The translations under genes were made by a program, and so were the position numbers. The notes under the pieces were generated by a model. That model worked only from the letters and a program-made list of their open reading frames with translations. It had not been told where the DNA came from and did not search any database. A stretch of DNA of 63,140 bases, the filler included, from Squatina squatina (taxonomy: Eukaryota), in assembly GCA_031763465.1 (NCBI GenBank). It is 4 parts of 4 records of this genome, joined end to end, with 100 filler letters (N's around TTAATTAATTAA, not from the genome) between each part and the next. Parts side by side here need not be neighbours in the genome. Positions count along the whole stretch, not along the records: positions 1 to 22,273 come from JARFOE010000058.1; 3 more parts are not named here. One strand, written 5' to 3'. Each line of letters opens with the position of its first letter. Positions within the stretch are counted from its first letter, which is position 1. Shown piece after piece: positions 7,168 through 63,140 of the stretch.

Positions 7168-7565
7168 AAACCAACTTCTCCTGGTGGCCCGGTCGCCGGC
7201 ATCCCTGGTGGCCCAGTGATGGGCCATGGGGCACCGTCAGGATGGTCGGCAGCCCCTCCCCTTTAAGGGAGGCCTGGCCATGCTCCTGACATCAACGTGC
7301 TGCATCTGACGTCAGCATGCAATGATGCTGATGTGGTGCAGCTGACGTTCCTGGCGTGGCGATGCAGCCACGCCAGCAATGTCCCTGGCCAGCCACCCTA
7401 GTTCTGCCCGGGAGCAAGGCTGGCATCTCTGTGCCTTGCTCCTGCTCTGGAACGCTAAATTCTGTGGCAGGCGGGGTTGGGGGGGGGTTTGGGAGCCGGC
7501 GAGAAAAATGCTGGCTCCCACCTGCTAGCATCCTGGAAGCGCTAGGCCCGAATTGTGCGCCCCAT
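7168..7565. mobile_element. GC-rich non-autonomous element (MITE-like) abutting the env remnant
   Basis: Sharp GC-rich block ending 'ggcccgaattgtgcgcccc'; similar ggcc-gaattt-like ends occur at ~20985, ~33080, ~35105 and ~57675. Confidence 0.4.
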
Positions 7566-7572
7566 GATTTCC

Positions 7573-8466
7573 TCATGTAGATTGCATGGTACAATTTGCC
7601 CTCTTCCCAGAGAATCCACATGCTGATCCTTCATGGTCACGTAGTCTATAGGGACAAATTAATGTCTCTCTCACTTGCTGACCAGGTCTGTGGGAACCCA
7701 GCTCTTCACTCCACTCACAGAGACGTTATAGGTTACATAAGGAGCATTGTCTCGATGCTCCGTTCCTATTTGCATTCCATACAATACATGTCCAATGTTT
7801 TCTAACCTTAATAGGAGATATCCCTAATGACTTGGAGTTATGAGAGGGAATTTCGAGACTATTCCTACCACTCCATCATTAGCAGGCCTATCACATTTGT
7901 GATAAACTACTTGAGCCTTAATCAACCTTCTTTAATTTAAAATATACTCGCATTTGGTGAAATTTCATAATCTGTCAAGTGTTAAATGTTCATTGCAATC
8001 AGGTATGTGTCCCTCCTCTAAATTATGGTTAGTTCTATGAACCAACCCCCATACATGATGCACACATCATTCCGAGCTGCCTCTGTGCTTGTTTCGCTCT
8101 TGATAATCTGATCCACCTTTCTGACAGTATCTACAATAGGATTAGTCAGTTTTGTTAAATGAAGAGTCATTATCAGGTCCTCATATAGTTCTTGTTGCAT
8201 TAAATTATTGCTTTGCTCAAAGATACTTCTAATTTGCTACTTAGCATTAATTCACTATCCATTGTTACTAAATCCAATCATTATAAGCCATTCCTGCCAT
8301 ACTGACTCCCATCACTATCATTAATCAAACTCCTTCTCTTCCTCTTGTGGGCTTTGGATTGTGACCACTGTAGTCGGTGGAGTTTATTACTACTCCACTT
8401 TAATATTTCAAATATTTTGGACTCCCATGAATCTCCAGTGTGCCCCCAAAAATCTTCTACTTGTTG
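7573..8466 (-). pseudogene. Endogenous viral envelope / class I fusion glycoprotein remnant, copy 1 (paramyxovirus F-like motif order)
   Basis: Manual minus-strand translation across frameshifts and stops: KRKRR|SLIND...LDLVTMDSEL...MQQELYEDLIMTLHLTKLTNPIVDTVRKVDQIIK...CIMYGGW...NLEEGHIPD...VVGIVSKFPLI...YLLLRLENIG...APYVTYN...WVPTDL...TLICPY...ACGFSGKRANCT. Confidence 0.7.
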
Positions 8467-8566
8467 NNNNNNNNNNNNNNNNNNNNNNNNNNNNNNNNNN
8501 NNNNNNNNNNNNNNNNNNNNNNNNNNNNNNNNNNNNNNNNNNNNNNNNNNNNNNNNNNNNNNNNNN

Positions 8567-9050
8567 ACATTGCTAATCCAGTCAGGTACATGTTTCTCCT
8601 CTAATTTATCTAAATTATGACGGGTTTGTTCTACTAGCCAACTCCCAGACATCATGCACTCGTCATTCCGAGCTGCCTCTGGACAAGCATTTTGCTCTTC
8701 CTTGATTACCTGATCAACCTTTCTAACAGTATCTAAATAGGATTAGTAAGTTTTGTTGAACGGAGAGTCATCGGTTCCTTGTATAGTTGCTGTTGCATTA
8801 AATTATTGCTTTGCTGTAAGATACTTTTAATTTGCTGCTTAGCCTTCCTTAATTCACTATTCATTGTTACTAAATCTAATCTATTATAAGCTATTGCTGT
8901 TGTATTGACTCCCATCTCTATATCATTAATCAAACTCCTGCTCTTCCTCTTTCCAAGTGGGGTTTGGGTCATGACCACTGTAGTCGGTGGAATATACCAC
9001 TTCTCCACTTCTTCACAATGATTTCTCAAATCTCTGGATTCCCAAGGAAC
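8567..9050 (-). pseudogene. Endogenous viral envelope / class I fusion glycoprotein remnant, copy 2
   Basis: ORF 8733-9029 'PPTTVVMTQTPLGKRKSR|SLINDIEMGVNTTAIAYNRLDLVTMNSELRKAKQQIKSILQQSNNLMQQ', continuing after a 1-nt frameshift into 'DTVRKVDQVIKEEQ...CMMSGSWLVEQTRHNLDKLEEKHVPDWISN'; homologous to 8000-8466. Confidence 0.7.
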
Positions 9051-10255
9051 TGAAATCGAACAGAATTAGACAGAGTGCCGGATTCAATCTAATGCATAGG
9101 TTGCAGCATTATTGAGTACCAAGCAGGGTTCAGTTGCAGACAAGGCTGTTTTTCAGATGGTCACATGGTACTCAGACAAATCAACGACAATTGCGATCTG
9201 TCCCCACAATTGGCCCATCAGACCCCATAATCGGCCCCCGATTTACCCCCGCAATCAGCCCCCACATTCAGCCCCTGCAATTGGCGCCCATCTGCCTCCG
9301 ATATTACCCCTTTTGTGGCTCCTTTCATGGCACGATCAGCCCCTGCGACTGCCCAAGTCCAAGGTAGACTCTCTGGCCGAGTCCCAGTGAACAGAAACTG
9401 AACCAAGCACAGGGAACAGANNNNNNNNNNNNNNNNNNNNNNNNNNNNNNNNNNNNNNNNNNNNNNNNNNNNNNNNNNNNNNNNNNNNNNNNNNNNNNNN
9501 NNNNNNNNNNNNNNNNNNNNATAACACTAATATGGAATGTCTGTGGTGTATTTAACTTCGAAGCTTTATGGCCTGATTAGCTGAGAAAATTTGTTAGTTA
9601 AAAAGCCTTGATAGTTTGGTGGTTTGAATTAGCCTGCTTTCCAGTCACTTCCCAGCATTCAATTCAAAAACTGAACTCCATATTGAGTGGGCAGCTGTCA
9701 AGCTAAAACTCCATTTGGGAAAATCTTACAGCTTACGAGGCATTTTCCTTATATTTGCTGTTTGATCAGTTTGTCAACACTCACTGTCTAGGCTGCCACA
9801 TGAAGAAAACAGTTGAGTGAAATACTGGAGAGATGCTCGTAACTTGAATTCATGTATCAACAGAAGTTCCTGACATTCGGAGAGGAGACAAGGGGGAAAA
9901 AGTTAACCTTGAGACAACTGGGTAGTGCAGTGGGTCAGCACTACATTTTCAACCTTTCAACCTCAGTTGTAATCCAGTCCAGTCACTGAACTCAGAACAG
10001 ATTAATGCCTTATATTCATTAAGAATTGGTTATTGTCCATACACACTATATGATTAACAAAAGAATTCTTTGCCATTGTAAGAGGCTATGTGATAGAAAT
10101 ATTGAATTTGTGACTTAACACTCAGTTTTATCACATTCTTTTTGACTTTTTTTGTTTGCAATTTTAACTTTTTGATTAGTTCCCTCTTTTTCTCTTGTTG
10201 CTTTTATTTAACCAGATTTTATTTAACCCATTAATTTTGTAATTTTCTTTCCAAG

Positions 10256-10552
10256 GTCGAAAATTAAAGAATACGAGACCATTCCAAACAGCAGAGGAAA
10301 CTGACTCTTCAGTTATACAAAAGCAACAGGACACCACTCTCTCCGTCGTACCAAGGATTGGTGTACCAAGGATGCAGAAATTTCAGTGTCAACCCCTGTT
10401 CCTTGCTGTGCTACAGTCCATTGAGCCTGATATGGTATATGCAGGCTATGACAATACACAGCCTGATACATCTGCTAGTTTGTTAACAAGCCTCAATGAA
10501 CTTGGGGAAAGACAACTTGTGCGTGTTGTCAAATGGGCAAAGGTCTTACCAG
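10256..10552 (+). CDS. AR: Androgen receptor exon 4 (hinge and start of the ligand-binding domain)
   Basis: ttttctttccaag| acceptor and |gtaag donor; encodes (G)RKLKN...[65 protein letters not shown] is diagnostic of AR. Confidence 0.95.
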
Positions 10553-11689: not shown

Positions 11690-11796
11690 GTTTTCGCAAT
11701 TTACATGTGGATGACCAAATGAGTCTCATACAGTATTCGTGGATGGCAGTTATGGTCTTCGCAATGGGATGGAGGTCCTATAGAATTGTGAATTCC
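11690..11796 (+). CDS. AR: Androgen receptor exon 5, 5' part only
   Basis: ccttgtctgcag| acceptor; [36 protein letters not shown]. The expected RMLYFAPDLVFNE and donor are absent. Confidence 0.9.
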
Positions 11797-12076
11797 AAAT
11801 GGTTTGCCTTAAACAAAAGTTCAGCAGAAAATGCTTACATATTTAATCTTTAAATCTCAGGTTTATAAAAAAATAAANNNNNNNNNNNNNNNNNNNNNNN
11901 NNNNNNNNNNNNNNNNNNNNNNNNNNNNNNNNNNNNNNNNNNNNNNNNNNNNNNNNNNNNNNNNNNNNNNNNNNNNNTGCATTTTTTGTACTAACAACAG
12001 AAGAAGCATAGAAATTGTATAACTGTGTACTGTGGTCTTTGCCACCAACTGTTCATATTTTTTCATGCATTTACAG

Positions 12077-36502: not shown

Positions 36503-37780
36503 CTCCTCGCAACTTGCCTTCCCACCTATTTTTGTGTCGTCTGCAAATTTAGCTACAGTGCATTCGCTTCCTTCCTCCAGGTCATTAATGTATATTGTAA
36601 ACAGTTGCGGCCCCAGCACTGATCCTTGTCGCACCCTACTGGTTACTGGTTGCCAATCAGAATATGACACCCTTATCTCTACTCTGTTTCCTGCCTGTTA
36701 GCCAATCCTCTATCCACGCCAATAAATTAGCTCCAACACCATCGGCTTTTATCTTGCAGCTTAACCTTTTGTGAAGTACCTTGTCGAATGCCTTCTGGAA
36801 ATATAAATACAATACATCTACTGGTTCCCCTCTAACCAATCTGGCTGAGACTTCCTCAAAAAACTCTAATAATTTTGTCAGGCAGGATTTCCCCTTCATG
36901 AATCCATGCTGACTCTGCGTGATTAGATTGTGATTTTCCAAATGAGCTGTTGTTACTTCTTTAATAATTGATTCTAGCATTTTTCCAACAATCGATGTTA
37001 AGCTAATTGGCCGATAGTTACCCGCGTTTTGCCTCCTTCCCTTTTTGAATAGACGTATCACATTTGCAGTCTTCCAGTCCTCTGGCAATTTCTCAGAATC
37101 TAGTGGTTTTTGAAGATTTCAAACAGTGCCTCCTCTATCTCTGCAGCTACCACCTTCAGGATCCTCGGATGCAAGCCATCTGGTCCAGGAGACTTGTCAG
37201 CCTTTAGCTCTTTGAGTTTGTCTAATACTATTTCCCTAGTGATGCTGATGGTATTTAGTCCTCCCTCTGCATTATTTAATATTAGTGTTATGTTTGTAGT
37301 ATCTTGTACCGTAAAAACCATTGAAAAGCAACTGCTTAACACCTCAGCCATTTCTTTGTTCCCCATAGCTACTTCCCCAGCCTCATTCTCCAGAGGGCCT
37401 ATATTCACTTTGACCTCCCTCTTCCTCTTCATGTACTTGTAGAAGCTCTTGTTATCAGTTTTTATATTCCTCGCGAGTTTCCCCTCATAGTTTATTTTTG
37501 CTCTCCTCATTATGTTTTTAGTTGTACTTTGCTGGACATGTATTTATCCCAGTCTTCGTGTCTACCGCTAACCTTTGCCTCCTTATAAGTTTTCTCTTTT
37601 AGCTTTATACTCTCCCTTACTTTGCTGGTTAGCCATGGTTGTTTCGCCCCTCTTTTCGAATCTTCCCTCCTCTCTGCAATGTATTTTTGCTGAATGTCAT
37701 GAATTATCTAATTGAATATCTGCCATTGCTTCTCTACTGTCTTACCTGCTAATCTATTTGCCCAGTCCACATTCGTCAAC
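36503..37780 (-). mobile_element. CR1 LINE ORF2 (reverse transcriptase), frameshifted
   Basis: 'KSPGPDGLHPRILK', 'NYRPISLTSIVGK', 'QHGFMKGKSCL', 'FQKAFDKV', 'QGSVLGPQLFTIYINDL', 'KFADDTK'. Confidence 0.97.
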
Positions 37781-40049: not shown

Positions 40050-43000
40050 GATGCTGTCTTCACTTCTGCTACCATTCTTCCTTCACAGTGTCTTTTATTA
40101 CGCAGTTTTTATCTGTGACATTGTTCTCCATTCCACTGCTTTTGGACCTTGAAGTTGTCGTCTCTCCAACTCACATTTATCAGTGCCCATTTCTACCCTC
40201 CACTGTCTTTTATCCTCACTCTTGTCTTTTCTCCAGTTCCTTTTATTCTCAGTGATGTCATCTCTCCACTCTCCTTTATCCTCACTGTTGTCTTCTCTCT
40301 AGTCCCTTTTATTCTCATTGTTGACTTCTCTCCTGCCCCTTTTATCCACAGTGTTGTCTTCTCTCCAGTTCCTTTTATCCTCAATTTTGTCTTCCCTCGA
40401 GTACCTTTTATCTTCAGTGTTTTCTTCTCCTAGTCCCTTTTATCCTCAGCCTTTTCTTCTCTCCAGTCTCGTTTATTCTCAGTGTTGTATTCTCTCCAGT
40501 CCATTTTTTCCTCAGTGTTGTCTTCTCTCAAGTCGCTTTTATCTTCATTGTTGACTGCTCTCCTGCCCCTTTTATCCAAATTGTTGTCTGCCCTCCTGTA
40601 CGCGTTAATACTCAATGCTGTCCCCTTTCCATTCCTTTTAATCCTCAGTGTTGTCTGCTCTACAGACGCATTTATATACGTTACTGTCTTCCCCCAATCC
40701 CCGTTTATCCTCAGTATTGTCTTCTCTCCAGTCCCCGCTATCCTCAGTGTTGTCTTCTCTCCAGTCCCATTCATCCTCAGTGTTGTCTACTCTCCAGTCC
40801 CTACTAAACACAGTGTTGTCATCTCTCCTTTCCCCTTTATCCTCAATATTGTCTTCTCTCCAGTCCCTATTAACGATCGTGTGTCTCCTCTCCAGTCCCA
40901 TTTCTTCACGCTGTTGTCTTCTCTCCTGTCCCCTTTATCATCAGTGTTGTATTCTCTCCAGTCGCTTTTGTCCTGGTGTTGCCTTCTCTCCAGTACCTTT
41001 TACCCACAGTATTGTATTCACTCCAGTCCACTTGTTCCTCAGTGTTGTCCTCTCTCCAATCCATTTTATCCTTTGTAATCTCTTCTCTCCAGTCTTCTAT
41101 TTATTCAGAGTTTTCCTCTCTCCAGTCCCATTTCTCCTCAGTGTTGTCTTCTCTCCAGTCCCATTTATCCTCGATATTGTCTTCTCTCCAGTCCCATTTA
41201 TCCTCCGTGATGTCTTCTCTCCAGTCCCATTTAACTTCAGTGTTGGATTCTCTCCAGTCCCATTTTTCCTTGATGTTGTCATCTCTCCAGTCCCATTCCT
41301 CCTCAGTATTGTCTTCTCTCCAGTTCCATTTGTCATTAGTGTTGTCTTCTCTCCAGTCCCATTTAACCTCAGTGCTGTCTTGTCGTCAGTCCCTTTTATC
41401 CTCAGTTTTGTCTTCTCTCCAGTCCCTTTTATCCTCGATAGTGTCTTCTCTCCAGTTGCTATTAATCAGTGTGTTGTCGTCTCTCCTGTCCCCGTTATAC
41501 TCAATGTTGTCTTCTATCCTGTCCCTTTATGCTCAATATTGTCTTCTCTCCAGTCCCTATTAACTGCAGTGTTGGCTTCTCTCCTATCCCCTTTATCCTC
41601 AATATTGTCTTCTTTCCAGTCCCTATTAAGCAGTGTGTTGTCTTCTCTCCAGCCCTTTTATCCTCACTGTTGTCCCCTCTCCTGTCACCATTATCATCGA
41701 TAGTGTCTTCTATTCAGTCCCTATTACCCACAGTGTTCTCTTCTCTCCTGTCCCTTTATCCTCAATATTGTCTTCTCTCCAGTACCTTTTATCTTCAATG
41801 TTTTCTTCTCCTAGTCCCTTTTATCCTCAGTCTTTTCTTCTCTCCAGTCTCGTTTATTGTCAGTGTTGTATTCTCTCCAGTCCATTTTCCTCAGTGTTGT
41901 CTTCTCTCCAGTCCCTGTTATCCTCATTGTTGACTGCTCTCCTGCCCCTTTTATCCACATTGTTGTCTGCCCTCCTGTACGCTTTAATCCTCAATGCTGC
42001 CCCCTTTCCATTCCTTTTAATCCTCAGTGTTGTCTACTCTACAGACGGATTTATACACATTATTGTCTTCCCCCCAATCCCTGTCTATATTCAGTGTTGT
42101 CTTCCCTCCGGTCCCTTTTATCCTCAGTATTGTCTTCTCTCCAGTCCCCGCTATCCTCAGTGTTGTCTTCTCTCCTGTCCCCTTTATCCTCGAGATTATC
42201 GTCTCTCCAATCGCTATCAATCCACAGTGTTGACTTCTCTCCTGTCCCCGTTATCCTCAGTGTTGTCTTCTCTCCTGTCCAATTTATCCTCAATATTGTC
42301 TTCTCTCCAGTCCCTATTAACGAAAGTGTGTCTCCTCTCCAGTCCCTTTTATCCACGGTGTTGTCTTCTCTCCTGTCCACTTTATCATCAATGTTGTCTT
42401 CGCTTCAGTCACTTTTATCCTGGTGTTGCCTTCTCTCCAGTACCTTTTTTGCCACAGTATTGCATTCAATCCAGTCCAGTTGTTGCTCAGTGTTGTCTTC
42501 TCTCCAATCTACTTTATCCGTTGTAATCTCTTCTGTCCAGTCTTCTTTTTCTTCAGAGTGTTCCTCTCTCCAGTCCCATTTCTCCTCAGTGTTGTCTTCT
42601 CTCCAGTCCCCTTTATCTTCGATATTCTCTTATCTCCAGTCCCATTTGTCCTCAGTGTTGTCTTCTCTCCTGTCGCTATTAACCACAGTGTTGTCTCTCC
42701 TGTCCCCATTATACTCAATGTTGTCGTCTCTGCTGTCCCGTTATGCTTAATATTGTCTTCTCCCCAGTCCCTATTAACTGCAGTGTTGGCTTCTCTCCTA
42801 TCCCCTTTATCCTCAATATTGTCTTCTCTCCAATCCCTATTAAGCAGTGTGTTGTCTTCTCTCCAGTCCCTTTTATCCTCACTGTTGTCTTCTCTCCTGT
42901 CCCCATTATCCTCGATATTGTCTTCTATTCAGTCGCTATTACCCACAGTGTTGTCTTCTCTCCTGTCCCCGTTATAATCAGTGTTCTCTTCTCTCCTGTC

Positions 43001-46000
43001 CCTTTATACTCAATATTGTCTTCTCTCCAGTTCCTATTAACGACAGTGTTGTCTTCTCTCCTGTCCCTTTTATCCTCAATATTGTCTTCCTCGCAGTCCC
43101 TAATAACGAGAGTGTTGACTCCTCTCCAGTACCATTTATCCACGGTGTTGTCTTCTCTCCTGCCCCCTTTATCATCAGTGTTGTCTTCTGTCCAGTCGCT
43201 TTTATCATGGTATTGACTTCTTTCCAGTACCGTATACCCACAGTATTGTCTTCAATCATGTCCACTTGATCCTCAGTGCTGTCTTCTCTCCAGTCTGCTT
43301 TTCCTCAGTAATCTCTTCTCTGTGTCCACATTTTCCTCAGATTTGTTAGCTCCAGAGTCCCATTTATCCTCAGTGTTTTCTTCTCTTCTGTCCACTTTAC
43401 GCTCAATATTGTCCTCTTTACAGTCCCCATTAACCACAGTGTTGTCTTCTCTCCAGTCTGCTTTATCCTCAGTAATCACTTCTCTCCAGTCCTCTTTTTC
43501 CTCATATTTGTCAACTCTAGAGTCCCATTTTTCTCAGTGTTGTCTTCTCTCCTGTCCACATTATCCTCAATATTATCTTCTCTCCAGTCCCCATTAACCA
43601 CAGTGTTGTCTCCTCCCCAGTCAAATTTATCCTCAGTGTTGTCTTCTCGCCAGTCCCTTTTATCCTCGGTGTTGTCTCCTCTCCAGTCCTGTTTATCCTC
43701 AGTGCTGTCTTCTCTCAGTCATTATTATCCTCATTGTTGACTTCTCTCCTGCCCGATTTATCCTCACTGTTGTTTTCCCTCCTGTCCCCTTTTATCCTCA
43801 CTGTTTTCTCCACTTCAGTCCCATTAATCCTCAGAGTTGTCTACTCTGCAGACCCATTTATGCACAGTACTGTCTTCCCTCCTGTCCCCTTTTATAGCCC
43901 GTGTTGTCTTCCCTCCAGTCCCTTTTATCCTCCGTATTGTCTTCTCTCCAGGCTCCGTTTTTGTCAGTGTTTCTTCTCTCCAAGTCCCTTTTATCCTCGA
44001 TATTGTCTTCTCCCCAGTCCGTTATATACTCACTGTTGTCTTCTCTCCTGTCCCCTTTATCCTCGATATTGTCTTCTCTCCAGTCGCTATTCATCACAGT
44101 GTTGTCTTCTCTCCTGTCCCCTTTATACTCAGTGTTGTCTTCTCTCCTGTCCCTTTATCTTCAGTATTGTATTCTCTCCCGTCCCTATTAACTGCAGTGT
44201 TGTCTTCTCTCCTATCCCCTTTATCATCAATATTGTCTTCTCTCCAGTCCCTATTAAGCAGTGTGTTGTCTTCTCTCCAGTCCCTGGTATCCTCACTGTT
44301 GTCTTATCTCCTGTCCCCATTATCCTCGGTGTTGTCTTCTTCTCAGTCGCTATTAACCACAGTGTTGTCTTCTCTCCTGTCCCGGTTAACCAGAGTATTG
44401 TCTCATCTCCAGTCTCATTTATCCATGCTGTTGTCTTCTATCCTGTCTCTGTTTCCCTCAGTGTCGTAGTCTCTCCAGTCCCTTTTATCCTCGATAGTGT
44501 CTTCTCTCCAGTCGCTATTAACCACAGTGTTGTCTTCACTCCTGTCCCCGTTATACTCAATGTTGTCTTCTCTCCTGTCCCTTTGTGCTAAATATTGTCT
44601 TCTCTCCAGTCCCTATTAACTCCAGTGTTGTCTTCTCTCCTATCCCCTTTATCCTCAATATTGTCCTCTCTACAGTCCCTATTAAGCAGAGTGTTGTCTT
44701 CTCTCCAGTCTCTTTTATCCTCACTGTTGTCTTCTCTCCTGTCCCCATTCTCCTCGATATTGTCTTCTATTCAGTCGCTATTACCCACTGTGTTGTCTTC
44801 TCTCCTGTCCCCGTTATCAGCAGTGTTCTCTTCTCTCCTGTCCCTTTATCCTCAATATTGTCTTCTCTCCAGTCCGCATTAACCACATTGTTGTCTTCTC
44901 TCCTGTCCCCTTGATCCTCTCTATTGTATTCTCTCCAGTCCCCATTAACCACAGTGTTGTCTTCTCTCCAGTCCCTATTAACCAGATGTTGTCTCATCTC
45001 CAGTCTCATTTATCCACGGTGTTGTCTTCTATCCTGTCCCCTTTAACATCAGTATTTTCTTCTCTCCAGTCACTTTTATCCTGGTGTTGTCTTCTCTCCA
45101 GTTTCTTTTCCCCACAGTATTGTATTTTCTCCAGTCTGCTTTAACCTCAGTAATCTCTTCTCTCCTGTCCTCTTTTTCCTCAGAGTTTCCTCTCTCCAGT
45201 CCCATTTCTCCTCAGTGTTATCTTCTCTCCAGTCCCATTTAGCTTCGATGTTGTCTTCTCTGCAGTCCCATTGATCTTCAGTGTTGTCTTCTGTCCAGGC
45301 CCATTTATCCTTAACGTTGTCTTCTCTCCAGTCCCATCCATCCACATTGTTGTCCTCTCTCCAGTCCCATTTGTCCTCAGTGTTGTCCTCTCTCCAGTCC
45401 CATTTATCCCCAGTGTTGTCTTCTCGCCAGTCCCTTTTATCCTTAGTGCTGTCTTCTCTTCTGTCCTTATTATCCTCATTGTTGACTTCTCTCCTGCCCA
45501 TTATATCCCGATTGTTGTCTTCCCTCCTGTCCCCTTTTATCCTCAAAGCTGTCTCCTCTCCAGTCCCTTTAATCCTCAGTTTTGTCTAATCTACAGAACC
45601 ATTTATCAAGAGCATTTTCTTCCCTCTCCAATCCCCTTTTATACTCCGTGTTGTCTTCCCTCCAGTCCCGTTTATGCTCAGTATTTTCTTCTCTCCAGTC
45701 TCCCTTTTCCTCAGTGTTGTCTTCTCTGCAGTCCCTTTTATCCTTGATATTGTATTCTCTCCAGTCACTATTAACCACAGTGTTGTCTTCTCTCCTGTCC
45801 CTGTTTTCCTCAATGTTGTCTTCTCTCCTGTCTTTTTATCCTCAACATTGTCTTCTCTCCAGTCCCAATTAACCAGAGTGTTGACTTCCCTGCAGTCCCT
45901 TTTACCTCACGGTTGTATTCTCCCCAGTCCCTTATATCCTCGCTGTTGTCTTCTCTCCTGTCCCCTTTATCCTCGATATTGTCTTCTCTCCAATCGCTAT

Positions 46001-48000
46001 TAACCACAGTGTTGTCTTCTCCCCAGTCCCCGTCATCCTCAGTGTTGTCTTCTCTCCAATCTCCGTTTCCCTCAGTGTTGTCTTCTCTCCTATCCCCTTT
46101 CTCCTCAATATTGTCTTCTCTCCATTCCCTATTAACCAGACTGTTGTCTTCTCTGCAGTCCCTTTTATCCTCACTTTTGTCTTCTCTCCTGTCACTTTAT
46201 CCTCAATATTGTCTTCTCTCCAGTCCCCATTAACCACAGTGTTGTCTTCTCTCCTATCCCCTTTATCCTCAATATTGTCTTCTCTCCTGTCCCCTTTATC
46301 CTCAATATTGTCTTCTCTCCTGTCCCATTATCCTCAAATTTTCTTCTCTTCCGTCCCTAGTAATTGCAATGCTGTCTTCCCTCCTGTCCCCTTTATCCTC
46401 AATATTATCTTCTCTCCAGTCCCTATTAAACAGAGTATTGTCGCCACTCCAGTCCCCTTTATCCACGGTGCTTTCTTCTCTCCTGTCCCATTTATCATCA
46501 GTGTCGTCTTTTCTCCAGTCGCTTTTATCCTGGTGTTGTCTTCTCTCCAGTACCTTTTACCCATGGTAATTTCTTCACGAAAGTCCACTTTATACTCAGT
46601 GTTGTCTTCTCGCCAGTATGCTTTATCCTCAGTAATCTCTTCTCTCCACTCCTCTTTTTCCTCAGAGCTGTCAACTCTAGGGTCCCATTTATCCTCACTG
46701 TTTACTTCTATCCTGTCCACTTTATCCTCAATATTATCTTCTCTCAAGTCCCCATTAACCACAGTGTTTTCTTCTCTCCTGTCCCCTTTAACCTCAGTAT
46801 CGTCCTGTTTCCAGTCCCTATGAACCAGAGTGTTGTCTTATCCCCAGTCCCATTTATCCACGGTGTTTTCTTCTATCCTTTCCCCTTTATCATCAATGTT
46901 GTCTTCTCTCCAGTCCCTATTTTCCTCTATGTTCTCTTCTCTCCAGTCCCTTATATCCTCCTTGATGTCTTCTCTCCACATTCATTCACAGTATTGTCTT
47001 GCGTCCTGTCCCCTTTACCCTCAGTGTTGTATTCTCTCCAGTCCCTTTTATCATCAGTGCAGTCTTCTCTCCAGTCCATTTTATCCTCAGTGTTATTTTC
47101 TCTCCAGTCCCTTTTATCCTCAGTGTTGCCTTCTCTCCAGTCCCTGTTAACCTCAGTGTTGTCTTCTCTTCAGACACTTTTATCCTCAGCATTGTCTTCT
47201 CTCCAGTCCCTTTTTCCTCAGTGTTGTCTTTTCTCCAGTCCCTTTTATCCTCAGTGTTGTCTTCTCTCCAGTCCCTTTTATCCTCAGTGTTGCCTTTTCT
47301 CCAGTCCCTTTTATAGTTTATGTTGTCGTTTCTCCTGTGCCTTTTCTACTCAGTTTTTTCGTCTCTGCTGTTCTTTTTTTCCTCAGGTCTGTCTTCTCTC
47401 CAGTCCCCCTGATCCTCAGTTTTGTATTCTCTCCAGTCCCTTTTATCATTATTGTTGTCTTCCCCCAGTCCCTATTTCCCCGCTGTTTTCTTCACTCCAG
47501 TCCCCTTTTCCTCGTTTTTAACTTCTCTCAAGTCGCTTTTATCCTCAGTGTTGTCCCCTCATCGTTACTTTTCTTCTCGGTGTTGTCCTCTCTCCAGTCC
47601 CTTTGATCCTCGGTGTTCTCTTCTCTCCAGTTCCTTTTATACTCAGTGTGATATTCTCCACAGTATCTTTTTTCGGCAGTGTGTTCTTCCCTCCAGTCCC
47701 TTTTATTCCAGTGTTTTCTCCTCTCCAGTCCCTTTTTTCCAAGGGTGTACTTCTCTTCAGTCTATTTTATCCTCTATGATGTCTTCTCTCCAGTTCCTTT
47801 TATCCCATTGTCATCTTCTCTCCAGTCTATTTTGTCCTCATTGTTGTCTTCTCTCCAGTCCCCTTTTATCCTCGGTGTTGTCTTCTCTCCAGTGACATTT
47901 ATCCTCGGTGTTGTCTTCACTCCAGTACTTTTTTATCTTCAGATTGTTTCATCTCTCCCAGTCGAATTTGCACTTCCTCTATTTCCTCATTTCCTTGTGT
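40050..48000. repeat. ~8 kb degenerate pyrimidine-rich satellite, 33-bp unit cagtgttgtcttctctccagtcccatttatcct, in GPCR intron 1
   Basis: Unit read directly (e.g. 41139-41270); explains the 11-aa periodic ORFs (PVPFILSVVFS / LLSSVLSSLQS / RIKGTGEKTTL). Confidence 0.95.
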
Positions 48001-60120: not shown

Positions 60121-62523
60121 CATTACACCAAACAGTACATTTACCCAAANNNNNNNNNNNNNNNNNNNNNNNNNNNNNNNNNNNNNNNNNNNNNNNNNNN
60201 NNNNNNNNNNNNNNNNNNNNNNNNNNNNNNNNNNNNNNNNNNNNNNNNNATTCGTCAGATTAATTTACACCATGATTGGTCAACCGTGTTCGAGTGTTTG
60301 GATTGGTTGCATAACTATAATGTGGCCAGTCGAGAAAGATGACTTTCTATAGTTAGACCATGTTGCTAAAGTTAATATATCAAGAATCTACCTTTCACAA
60401 AACAGGGATCAAAAGGTGAGTTGCAGAATTTGATAGCTATTACCCTCCTTTAAACAAAACGACTACCGTAATATCAGAGATAATTTTATTCTAAATTTGA
60501 CACAGTGCCTATCTTGTTGCAGAAGTTTCATTATTTATACATCTCTTGATAGACATAGGATAGTAAGGCAGTGAGAACTAAGCAGCGCAGTAACCTAGGA
60601 GATGGTCACATGTACTGCTTTAAGACTCCTACCCGAATGAATCACTTGCAGTCAGATTACCGATTCGCTTACTGTTTTCCTTTGATGAGAAATAACTTCT
60701 TGAAGAAAAATACCTTTGACTACCACGGACCCAGAGTGTTGGATTTGCTCTACCGTAGCATATTTTACGAGGCTACTACAGTTACAATGAACATGGACTG
60801 AGAAAGAGAAACAGTTCAGAACAATCAATTTGAACACAACGGATTTTGGATTACATTAGCAGTGAAAGGTAAATTCTGAAATAAATAAGCATGCTAATTA
60901 TTTTAAAAGAATTATTCCTTAAATGTTCAATGTTTCTGTTTATTTTAATGTCCCTATGGGAAGTCGTTTTTATCATGTGGGCTGGAGAATAAAATGTCCT
61001 GGACTACAGACGTCCCCCGATTATAAACAATTCTGCTCCGTGGTTGTCTGACAGGAGGTGAGTGCATTGTAAGGCAATGAAAAAGCTGCGTGTTATTTAT
61101 TCAAAAAATTGTAAAACTGTAATGGCTAGATTTAATTTTGAATTCCAATGTTTACTAATAAATATTTTAGTTTAATCTGTATCACTCGTAATTCTGTAAA
61201 TATCAAAGTCAGTAGCAAATTTGATATCCATATAGAAAGCTTTATTCAGAATGTGACATTGTACATTGCCCCACTACTAAACAGCACATGCNNNNNNNNN
61301 NNNNNNNNNNNNNNNNNNNNNNNNNNNNNNNNNNNNNNNNNNNNNNNNNNNNNNNNNNNNNNNNNNNNNNNNNNNNNNNNNNNNNNNNNNNNNNNNNNNN
61401 NNNNNNNNNNNNNNNNNNNNNNNNNNNNNNNNNNNNNNNNNNNNNNNNNNNNNNNNNNNNNNNNNNNNNNNNNNNNNNNNNNNNNNNNNNNNNNNNNNNN
61501 NNNNNNNNNNNNNNNNNNNNNNNNNNNNNNNNNNNNNNNNNNNNNNNNNNNNNNNNNNNNNNNNNNNNNNNNNNNNNNNNNNNNNNNNNNNNNNNNNNNN
61601 NNNNNNNNNNNNNNNNNNNNNNNNNNNNNNNNNNNNNNNNNNNNNNNNNNNNNNNNNNNNNNNNNNNNNNNNNNNNNNNNNNNNNNNNNNNNNNNNNNNN
61701 NNNNNNNNNNNNNNNNNNNNNNNNNNNNNNNNNNNNNNNNNNNNNNNNNNNNNNNNNNNNNNNNNNNNNNNNNNNNNNNNNNNNNNNNNNNNNNNNNNNN
61801 NNNNNNNNNNNNNNNNNNNNNNNNNNNNNNNNNNNNNNNNNNNNNNNNNNNNNNNNNNNNNNNNNNNNNNNNNNNNNNNNNNNNNNNNNNNNNNNNNNNN
61901 NNNNNNNNNNNNNNNNNNNNNNNNNNNNNNNNNNNNNNNNNNNNNNNNNNNNNNNNNNNNNNNNNNNNNNNNNNNNNNNNNNNNNNNNNNNNNNNNNNNN
62001 TCTGATTTTCTTCTTTCTTTTACATGTTGATATTCACTGTATACAGCATATTCTGGCCTGGTGATACTGACGCTTACTAAACTAAATTGGAATCGTCGAT
62101 GAGGTGACAACTGACAAGTAACCACATCAGACAAGTGATGGTTAGAACTTTCTATATCAGTTGCAACTCTGAGGGGATGTGTACATGTAATATGAGATAC
62201 CATGATGATTATTAGATCTTCTATTTTGGAGAACTGCACCAAGTATTTAGAAGAAAATTTAGAAGAAAGTATAAACAACGACAATTGAACAGCAGCAATA
62301 ATATGACTGATGGAACATTGGATAAACTACATCTGAGTTGGTTCATTTTGAATTATTATATTTCAGTCGTGAATGTTAAAGCATCAAAATGGGGTTGGAA
62401 GCTGGCTAGGAAGAGAATTCTTATAGAAGCAGCTTTTCTTCAATTGCACCTGGATGATCTCACTGAGCCATTCACTTATTAAAAAATTCACAGAGGCGGG
62501 TAGTTGAAGTTACATTTGATGTG

Positions 62524-62776
62524 ATGCCCAATCACCTGAAGAAAGCTCTCTTTTCCATGGCTGCTATTGTAAGTTTTGTTTCTGTAATCCTGCTGACTGT
62601 GGCACTTGGGACAACACAATGGGTGACTGGTACAATTCTGTGCAAAACTGGGGCTGATATTGTAAATGCCACTGATCCAGAAATGGCAAAGTTTATGGGA
62701 CATCTTTACTATGGATTATTCCAGGGACGAAAAATACGACAATGTGGTCTTGGAGGACGGTGCTCTAAAATCACAA
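62524..62776 (+). CDS. CLRN2: Clarin-2 coding exon 1
   Basis: [18 protein letters not shown]...[47 protein letters not shown], 253 nt with a phase-1 donor a|gtaatt. DxVNATD, YYGLF and GLGGR favour CLRN2 over CLRN1, as does the position next to QDPR. Confidence 0.9.
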
Positions 62777-63140
62777 GTAATTATGGCAGATTTGCAGAAA
62801 ATGATTTTGTTGCTTTTAACTTGTTATTTAGGTGGGAATTGGGCACACTCACCTTTCACTTCTGGAGCTCAAGAATCCAGCCAGAATGATGGGAATGAAA
62901 CTTCCACTGCCTGCTGGCTTTAAGGGTCTGATTTTAAAATTAGTTTGAGCAGTCTCGGTTTGCACAAGGCATCAGAAACTGCTCCAAATTTGACATTAGT
63001 TAGCAACCCAACTCAGAGAAGTCACAGGATGCCTCATGGGGGAAATAGAAAAATGTTACCCTGGTGCAAATAGGGGGTTGGTCTTCTGAAGGTTGGGGCG
63101 AAAGGATATTGCAGTGGCGAAGAGGGAACTTCGCTCTGCA

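Follow-up and report, generated by a model that had tools for sequence, protein, structure and literature searches.

What kind of envelope protein, and what kind of virus, is represented by the env-like sequence on the minus strand of positions 7562-9044? The sequence lies in a stretch of 63,140 nucleotides of Squatina squatina DNA (assembly GCA_031763465.1; hereafter the window, all positions being counted along it), and a sequence-only reading had described it as a single endogenous fusion-protein gene with a paramyxovirus-F-like architecture. We found two tandem partial copies of one env-like gene stretch, both truncated and frameshifted, which that reading had stitched together. In our preferred reading, to which we give a probability of roughly 0.55, these copies would be dead remnants of a multi-copy endogenous retrovirus with an F-type Env, its carrier being class III and snakehead-retrovirus-like and not a lokiretrovirus. 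The features on which the argument draws are as follows.

8567..9044, minus strand: env copy 1, from the end of the N-terminal subunit through the cleavage site, fusion-peptide position and long helix to LEEKHVP
About 9044, minus strand: 5' break of copy 1; relatives diverge from the window beyond 9024-9044
8937..8951, minus strand: basic cleavage-site position of copy 1, KRKSR, which departs from strict R-x-K/R-R
8883..8936, minus strand: fusion-peptide position of copy 1, a short segment of weak hydrophobicity that includes two acidic residues
8784..8882, minus strand: predicted long heptad helix (HRA) of copy 1, from single-sequence AlphaFold2
8467..8566, unstranded: 100 N hiding the junction of copies 1 and 2
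7562..8466, minus strand: env copy 2, the region of copy 1 plus a beta-rich, cysteine-bearing part, ending before any membrane anchor
7562, minus strand: 3' break of copy 2; relatives continue beyond it in runs X1, X3 and X5
8332..8343, minus strand: furin-type site RKRR of copy 2
8001..8012, minus strand: GHIP of copy 2, matching G[RK]IP of lokiretrovirus (Loki) Env and VP of the foamy-like NviFLERV-1
7791..7820, minus strand: Y-x-L-x4-N-[VI]-G of copy 2, common to 9 of the 10 Loki Envs covering the site
7612..7659, minus strand: ICP, then the RD-x5-CG-F cysteine block of copy 2, common to 8 of the 10 Loki Envs covering the site
7168..7561, unstranded: GC-rich repeat (63% GC) adjoining the 3' break of copy 2
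9044..9197, unstranded: unrelated low-copy sequence of 154 bp, directly adjoining copy 1 at its 5' break
9197..9420, unstranded: GC-rich repeat (57% GC) containing a tandem unit of 13 bp
10256..10552, plus strand: host androgen-receptor exon (hinge and start of the ligand-binding domain), from its PDB sequence match and splice sites

Direct-repeat families with a spacing of 583-610 tile 7562-9044, and the two env copies lie about 600 bp apart. Copy 1 (9044-8567) and copy 2 (8466-7562) are identical at 362 of 435 aligned sites (83%; K2P 0.19). A single frame change, near 8740, interrupts copy 1, whose 3' end runs into the 100 N; copy 2, in which the frame changes at least seven times and several stops occur, runs on into the beta-rich part. 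Runs of N are frequent throughout the window (42 in all, 34 of them exactly 100 long, about 1-1.5 kb apart), the one over the env junction being among them. Nearly all of the peptides quoted in the sequence-only reading were recovered from the minus strand of this region. Thus, IEMGVNTTAIAYN and the heptad text stem from copy 1, whose cleavage site is KRKSR, and KRKRR/SLIND and all motifs from LEEGHIPD through CGF..NCT stem from copy 2. One quoted segment, IVDTVRKVDQVIK, is present in neither copy and is a hybrid of YLDTVRKVDQVIK from copy 1 and IVDTVRKVDQIIK from copy 2.

Between the copies, pN/pS was 0.67 (121 codon pairs), and 26 of 62 differences fell at third positions, an excess that is not significant (p 0.10). 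Together, these values fit mostly neutral decay of the env copies. Domestication, which had been raised as a possibility, is ruled out for 7562-9044, both copies being broken and pN/pS not being clearly below 1. Dead, partial and without pol, the pieces suggest no function for the host, and the region is likely a real but dead, partial viral fossil.

Contigs of relatives continue past 7562 and about 9044, so both outer env ends are breaks, and the signal peptide and the membrane anchor, which are absent from the window along with both gene ends, consequently belong outside it. About 45 codons upstream of the cleavage site are present, with a helix predicted just before a Thr/Pro-rich linker that precedes the site. 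A likeness between SISVPW (9065-9045) and the N-terminal strand of Loki Env was dropped, as SISVPW lies beyond the 9044 break and is not env.

The furin-type site claimed for this locus is present in copy 2 as RKRR (R instead of K at the third position), and the KRKSR of copy 1 is a looser basic site. A typical fusion peptide, also claimed, is not what follows it: the stretch in copy 1 is short and polar, with a mean Kyte-Doolittle hydropathy of 0.24 over 20 residues (best 15-mer 0.75) and acidic residues at positions 5 and 7, although decay may be part of the cause. Single-sequence AlphaFold2 predicts a helix of 41 residues after the cleavage site (core pLDDT 96-98), in keeping with the proposed long heptad region; the heptad moment was equalled in 1,520 of 20,000 shuffles, which makes the periodicity weak when taken alone. 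The late helical (HRA) region holds a cysteine in both copies, and the helix upstream of the linker is predicted to end about 20 residues before the cleavage site. The window contains no immunosuppressive domain (ISD; LQNR..LD), and the minus strand of the env region, where the TM subunit begins, lacks CX6CC. The env is therefore not gamma-type; the sequence-only reading had not seen these motifs either.

To place the envelope, we compared motifs by eye with 11 of the 23 entries that the PMC7947760 supplement gives for Loki Env and with one full foamy-like TM. Copy 2 carries G[RKH]IP, an [LF]P[IL] strand, Y-x-L-x4-N-[VI]-G, CP and RD-x5-CG in the order published for lokiretrovirus Env, with about 118 codons from the cleavage site to the IP/VP motif. 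Across all six frames of the 63 kb window, two long Loki-derived patterns had a single occurrence each, in copy 2 and in the right order. In 20,000 Markov shuffles, one pattern appeared in 18 and the other in 22, and both together in none, a figure that is somewhat generous because the patterns had been widened by one or two residues after inspection of the window. With Loki-type motifs in order and at similar spacing, the proposal of an F-type, non-gamma retroviral envelope is supported, and among the comparators lokiretrovirus Env appears closest in motif order and spacing.

Profile and structure searches, which the sequence-only reading had put forward as checks, returned no viral fusion protein, and such tests are weak on env pieces this broken. 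In Pfam, seven queries with pieces of the broken env sequence gave unrelated rows below threshold or nothing, and none of four whole frames contained an env family. A PDB sequence search with the env gave no match at E 10 and a second search two chance rows; protein homologue searches gave 54, 45 and 0 candidates, none of them significant, with near-length relatives of the copy-1 piece left out. Searches of viral contigs and metagenome contigs with the env yielded no match, an Rfam search yielded 0 matches, and no RNA dataset was among the listed sequencing runs holding words of the window. In the ESM Atlas, the copy-1 piece matched a Baculo_F cluster at 0.93 and a Fusion_gly cluster at 0.91, with a recognition of 1754 that falls below the 2300 line; the top two matches had no family, so that Baculo_F was the best family-bearing match. 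The second env piece had no usable Atlas match. The C-terminal env piece, modelled from its single sequence, reached a pLDDT of only 37.6, and the Foldseek and VIA searches made with this poor model are void (best Z 6.0, to unrelated barrels); a fold search with the N-terminal env model gave no match. Viral fusion proteins were thus missing from the fold-search listings, which excludes nothing, as the single-sequence models are poor.

The env pieces have many relatives. Words of the window were found, as a small share, in twelve sequencing runs (six studies, five organisms), six of which were aligned. In four of these runs, 60, 48, 45 and 76 contigs fell on 7200-9450 with identities from below 90% to above 99%, and relatives of the env were also present in a fifth organism. 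Related sequence on many diverged contigs in five organisms indicates a multi-copy family. Read depth over the env exceeded the depth at the host exon by a factor of several to tens, which is a hint and not a copy number. In run X11 (organism E), 7650-8383 of the env is covered at a depth of about 60 by single contigs (390 and 269 letters), and the host exon has a depth below 2; this depth hints at many near-identical young env copies, without counting them.

The GC-rich repeat at 7168-7561 is uncovered by contigs of runs X1, X3, X4 and X5 and covered in X11. The 154-bp piece matches long, low-depth contigs, 82-84% alike, in runs X1, X3 and X4 (4589, 2297 and 2175 letters, from three organisms), and in X1 the matching contig differs in length from the one listed for the neighbouring intron. 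This low-copy piece and the flanking GC-rich repeats make the insert look composite. An orthologous site lacking the insert was not demonstrated, no contig among the matches listed bridging it.

Compared with the direct searches, published sequences offer the stronger evidence on the kind of envelope. According to PMC7947760 and its supplement, Loki Env has, like the window env, a basic cleavage site, a long heptad region and no ISD, and the window env matches its order of G[RK]IP, [LF]P[IL], Y-x-L-x4-N-[VI]-G, P-x-V-x-Y-like, VP-x-x-L-like, CP, RD-x5-CG and C. The distance from cleavage site to IP motif is 125 codons in two Loki Envs (counted by eye) and about 118 here, the helices are of nearly equal length, and the Loki helix before the cleavage site ends about 20 residues upstream, as predicted for the window env. 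These likenesses would suit the env of a true lokiretrovirus, from a divergent lineage extending the group to cartilaginous fish, a reading that the sequence-only account had put forward beside an errantivirus-like one and that we nevertheless consider unlikely. The fusion peptides of all 10 Loki Envs compared at that position are long (about 24 residues), uncharged and hydrophobic, whereas that of the window env is short and polar; a cysteine between the fusion peptide and the IP motif, present in both window copies, occurs in 0 of 9 Loki Envs; and the Thr/Pro-rich linker is likewise unlike Loki Env. Furthermore, no lokiretrovirus, and no Loki RT, was recorded in any of the six cartilaginous-fish genomes screened by Wang and Han (PMC7947760 supplement), which bears out the provisional statement in the sequence-only reading that these fish were not reported hosts. 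Membership of the lokiretroviruses or errantiviruses is defined by RT, the Loki RT clade being sister to retroviruses (PMC7947760). The lokiretrovirus layout is LTR-gag-pol-env-LTR. The env here is a fragment, and the 63 kb window yielded neither an LTR pair nor gag or retroviral pol, the lack of gag and pol having been noted before. Overall, the likenesses and differences suggest that the env pieces are F-type and related to Loki Env, and probably not from a lokiretrovirus.

That the pieces derive from a foamy or foamy-like virus of sharks, whose Env likewise has an F-like fold, seems to us somewhat less likely still. Endogenous foamy viruses of cartilaginous fish are reportedly already in print, in 2023 work by Wang, Chen and Cui that may already cover the window env. 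In mammalian foamy Env, the fusion subunit begins with polar residues and an NIGH motif is present, both of which resemble the window env. Foamy Env, a class Ib fusogen, also has the F scaffold that is likely for the window env (PMC11468914) and, like it, has no ISD and an L-E-x-x-x-VP motif after the central helix; LEEKHVP in particular resembles LENNKVP of the coelacanth virus CoeEFV (PMC6669660). In the foamy structure, HRA spans 576-651 after a site ending at 570, and the receptor-binding domain is inserted between HRC and the furin site (PMC11468914). However, the central helix of foamy Env is short (less than about 100 residues from cleavage to VP/ID), and the window env, with its 118 or so codons, is longer. 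In the foamy-like NviFLERV-1, the distance from cleavage to VP is 97 codons, the central helix is shorter, and the CP, RD-x5-CG and N[VI]G motifs of the window env are lacking in the sequence given in PMC5512871. A cichlid foamy-like env, judged by eye, shows none of the window env motifs, and no foamy Env was matched in Pfam or among PDB sequences.

We regard as improbable an F-type env from a Ty3/gypsy errantivirus-like retrotransposon. Such envs are widespread in invertebrate gypsy elements, but the same study found that vertebrates have no intact homologues of those elements (10.1101/2023.10.26.564294). The Baculo_F cluster was the best family-bearing Atlas match, at low recognition, but neither Baculo_F nor Gypsy was matched in Pfam.

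Paramyxovirus F has a cysteine in its late HRA region, as do both window copies. Paramyxovirus and pneumovirus F (PF00523) also have the predicted order of the window env, namely a cleavage site, fusion peptide, HRA and beta-rich cysteine region, and the Atlas gave a Fusion_gly match. Capture of the F gene from a paramyxo-like RNA virus of fish, followed by dispersal through a transposon of the host, could account for this and for env pieces lying in a seemingly composite insert with GC-rich repeats at both edges; moreover, paramyxovirus-like EVEs are known in sharks. We hold this to be very improbable, however, as the EVEs named in the published account are of N, L and HN and not of F, no Fusion_gly Pfam match or PDB F match was obtained, and the motifs follow Loki Env. 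The non-hydrophobic fusion peptide and the multi-copy genomic family also set the window env apart from paramyxovirus F. Lastly, chance resemblance, or pieces of a cellular coiled-coil gene, would agree with the missing profile, sequence and fold matches, but hardly deserves credence with both ordered motifs together in 0 of 20,000 shuffles and env pieces that are intronless and multi-copy in five organisms.

A class III, snakehead-retrovirus-like retrovirus with an F-type Env is our preferred carrier; neither such carriers nor foamy Env had been considered in the sequence-only reading. Snakehead-retrovirus-like ERVs (clade Huo, class III) occur in cartilaginous fish (PMC4422223, PMC6001957, PMC12193657), and in a published survey most cartilaginous-fish ERV RTs belong to clade III. 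With this excess we favour a class III carrier at moderate odds, despite CmiERV lineage I, a snakehead-like ERV of the elephant shark (PMC4422223, scaffold 2) whose env, translated by eye, is gamma-type with ISD and CX6CC. Accordingly, the snakehead-like clade does not always carry an F-type env, and env type may have been swapped within it. Further sources were PMC10699275, PMC13709493, PMC12440569, PMC8922424 and bioRxiv 2023.10.17.562709 and 2024.03.17.585361.

In the live virus, the window env likely worked as Loki Env and paramyxovirus F do. Homology with F and with foamy Env (PMC11468914) suggests that furin would cleave its precursor at R-x-K/R-R and that the freed N-terminus would insert into the target membrane; the long helix would then form a trimer core on which the C-terminal heptad packs, fusing the membranes. 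The pieces may have reached their present position as fragments, or have been cut down after insertion, and would now yield no protein.

Our literature search, which was thin in subscription journals, did not turn up any F-type env described from a shark retrovirus other than a foamy virus, and the F-type Env design is likely undescribed in print for the class III group that is its likely carrier. Wang and Han (PMC7947760) left open whether the F-like lokiretrovirus Env goes back to the ancestor of all retroviruses or was captured separately. With the later structure of foamy Env, a second retroviral lineage with an F-type Env came to light (PMC11468914). A third F-type Env, in cartilaginous fish, would bear directly on this question if linked to a datable Pol. 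Were that Pol snakehead-like, F-type Env would be found in three deep retroviral lineages and would probably be the ancestral envelope, later replaced by the gamma-type. The locus in the window is only a pointer to the env family, which matters more than the locus for the origin of retroviral envelopes. Tentatively, and at less than even odds, sharks may host a widespread and in places young retrovirus family whose env forms a third retroviral F-fold branch, beside lokiretrovirus and foamy virus, with a polar fusion peptide.

As for the host setting, the env pieces most likely sit antisense in an intron of the androgen-receptor gene. The exon at 10256-10552 has an ancestral androgen receptor as its best PDB sequence match (E 1.7e-27), two further ligand-binding-domain exons lie 3' of it, and the env pieces lie some 1.2 kb before it, on the other strand. 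As no DNA-binding-domain exon of the androgen receptor was found in the 63 kb window, we infer that the intron is the long one preceding the hinge exon. The androgen-receptor exon at 11690-11830 follows the expected receptor sequence to VNSK and then differs from it, possibly owing to a small deletion or an assembly fault.

Three other features of the window may be recorded. A reverse-transcriptase fragment at 36660-37118 (PF00078, E 4e-12) is LINE-like by its text and unrelated to the env. Positions 40207-47963 hold a 33-bp tandem array (236 copies, 72% matches) that is strongly purine-skewed and has long open frames. Finally, a Clarin-like exon (PF25807, E 1.3e-34) lies at 62467-62886, about 50 kb past the androgen-receptor exons in window coordinates.
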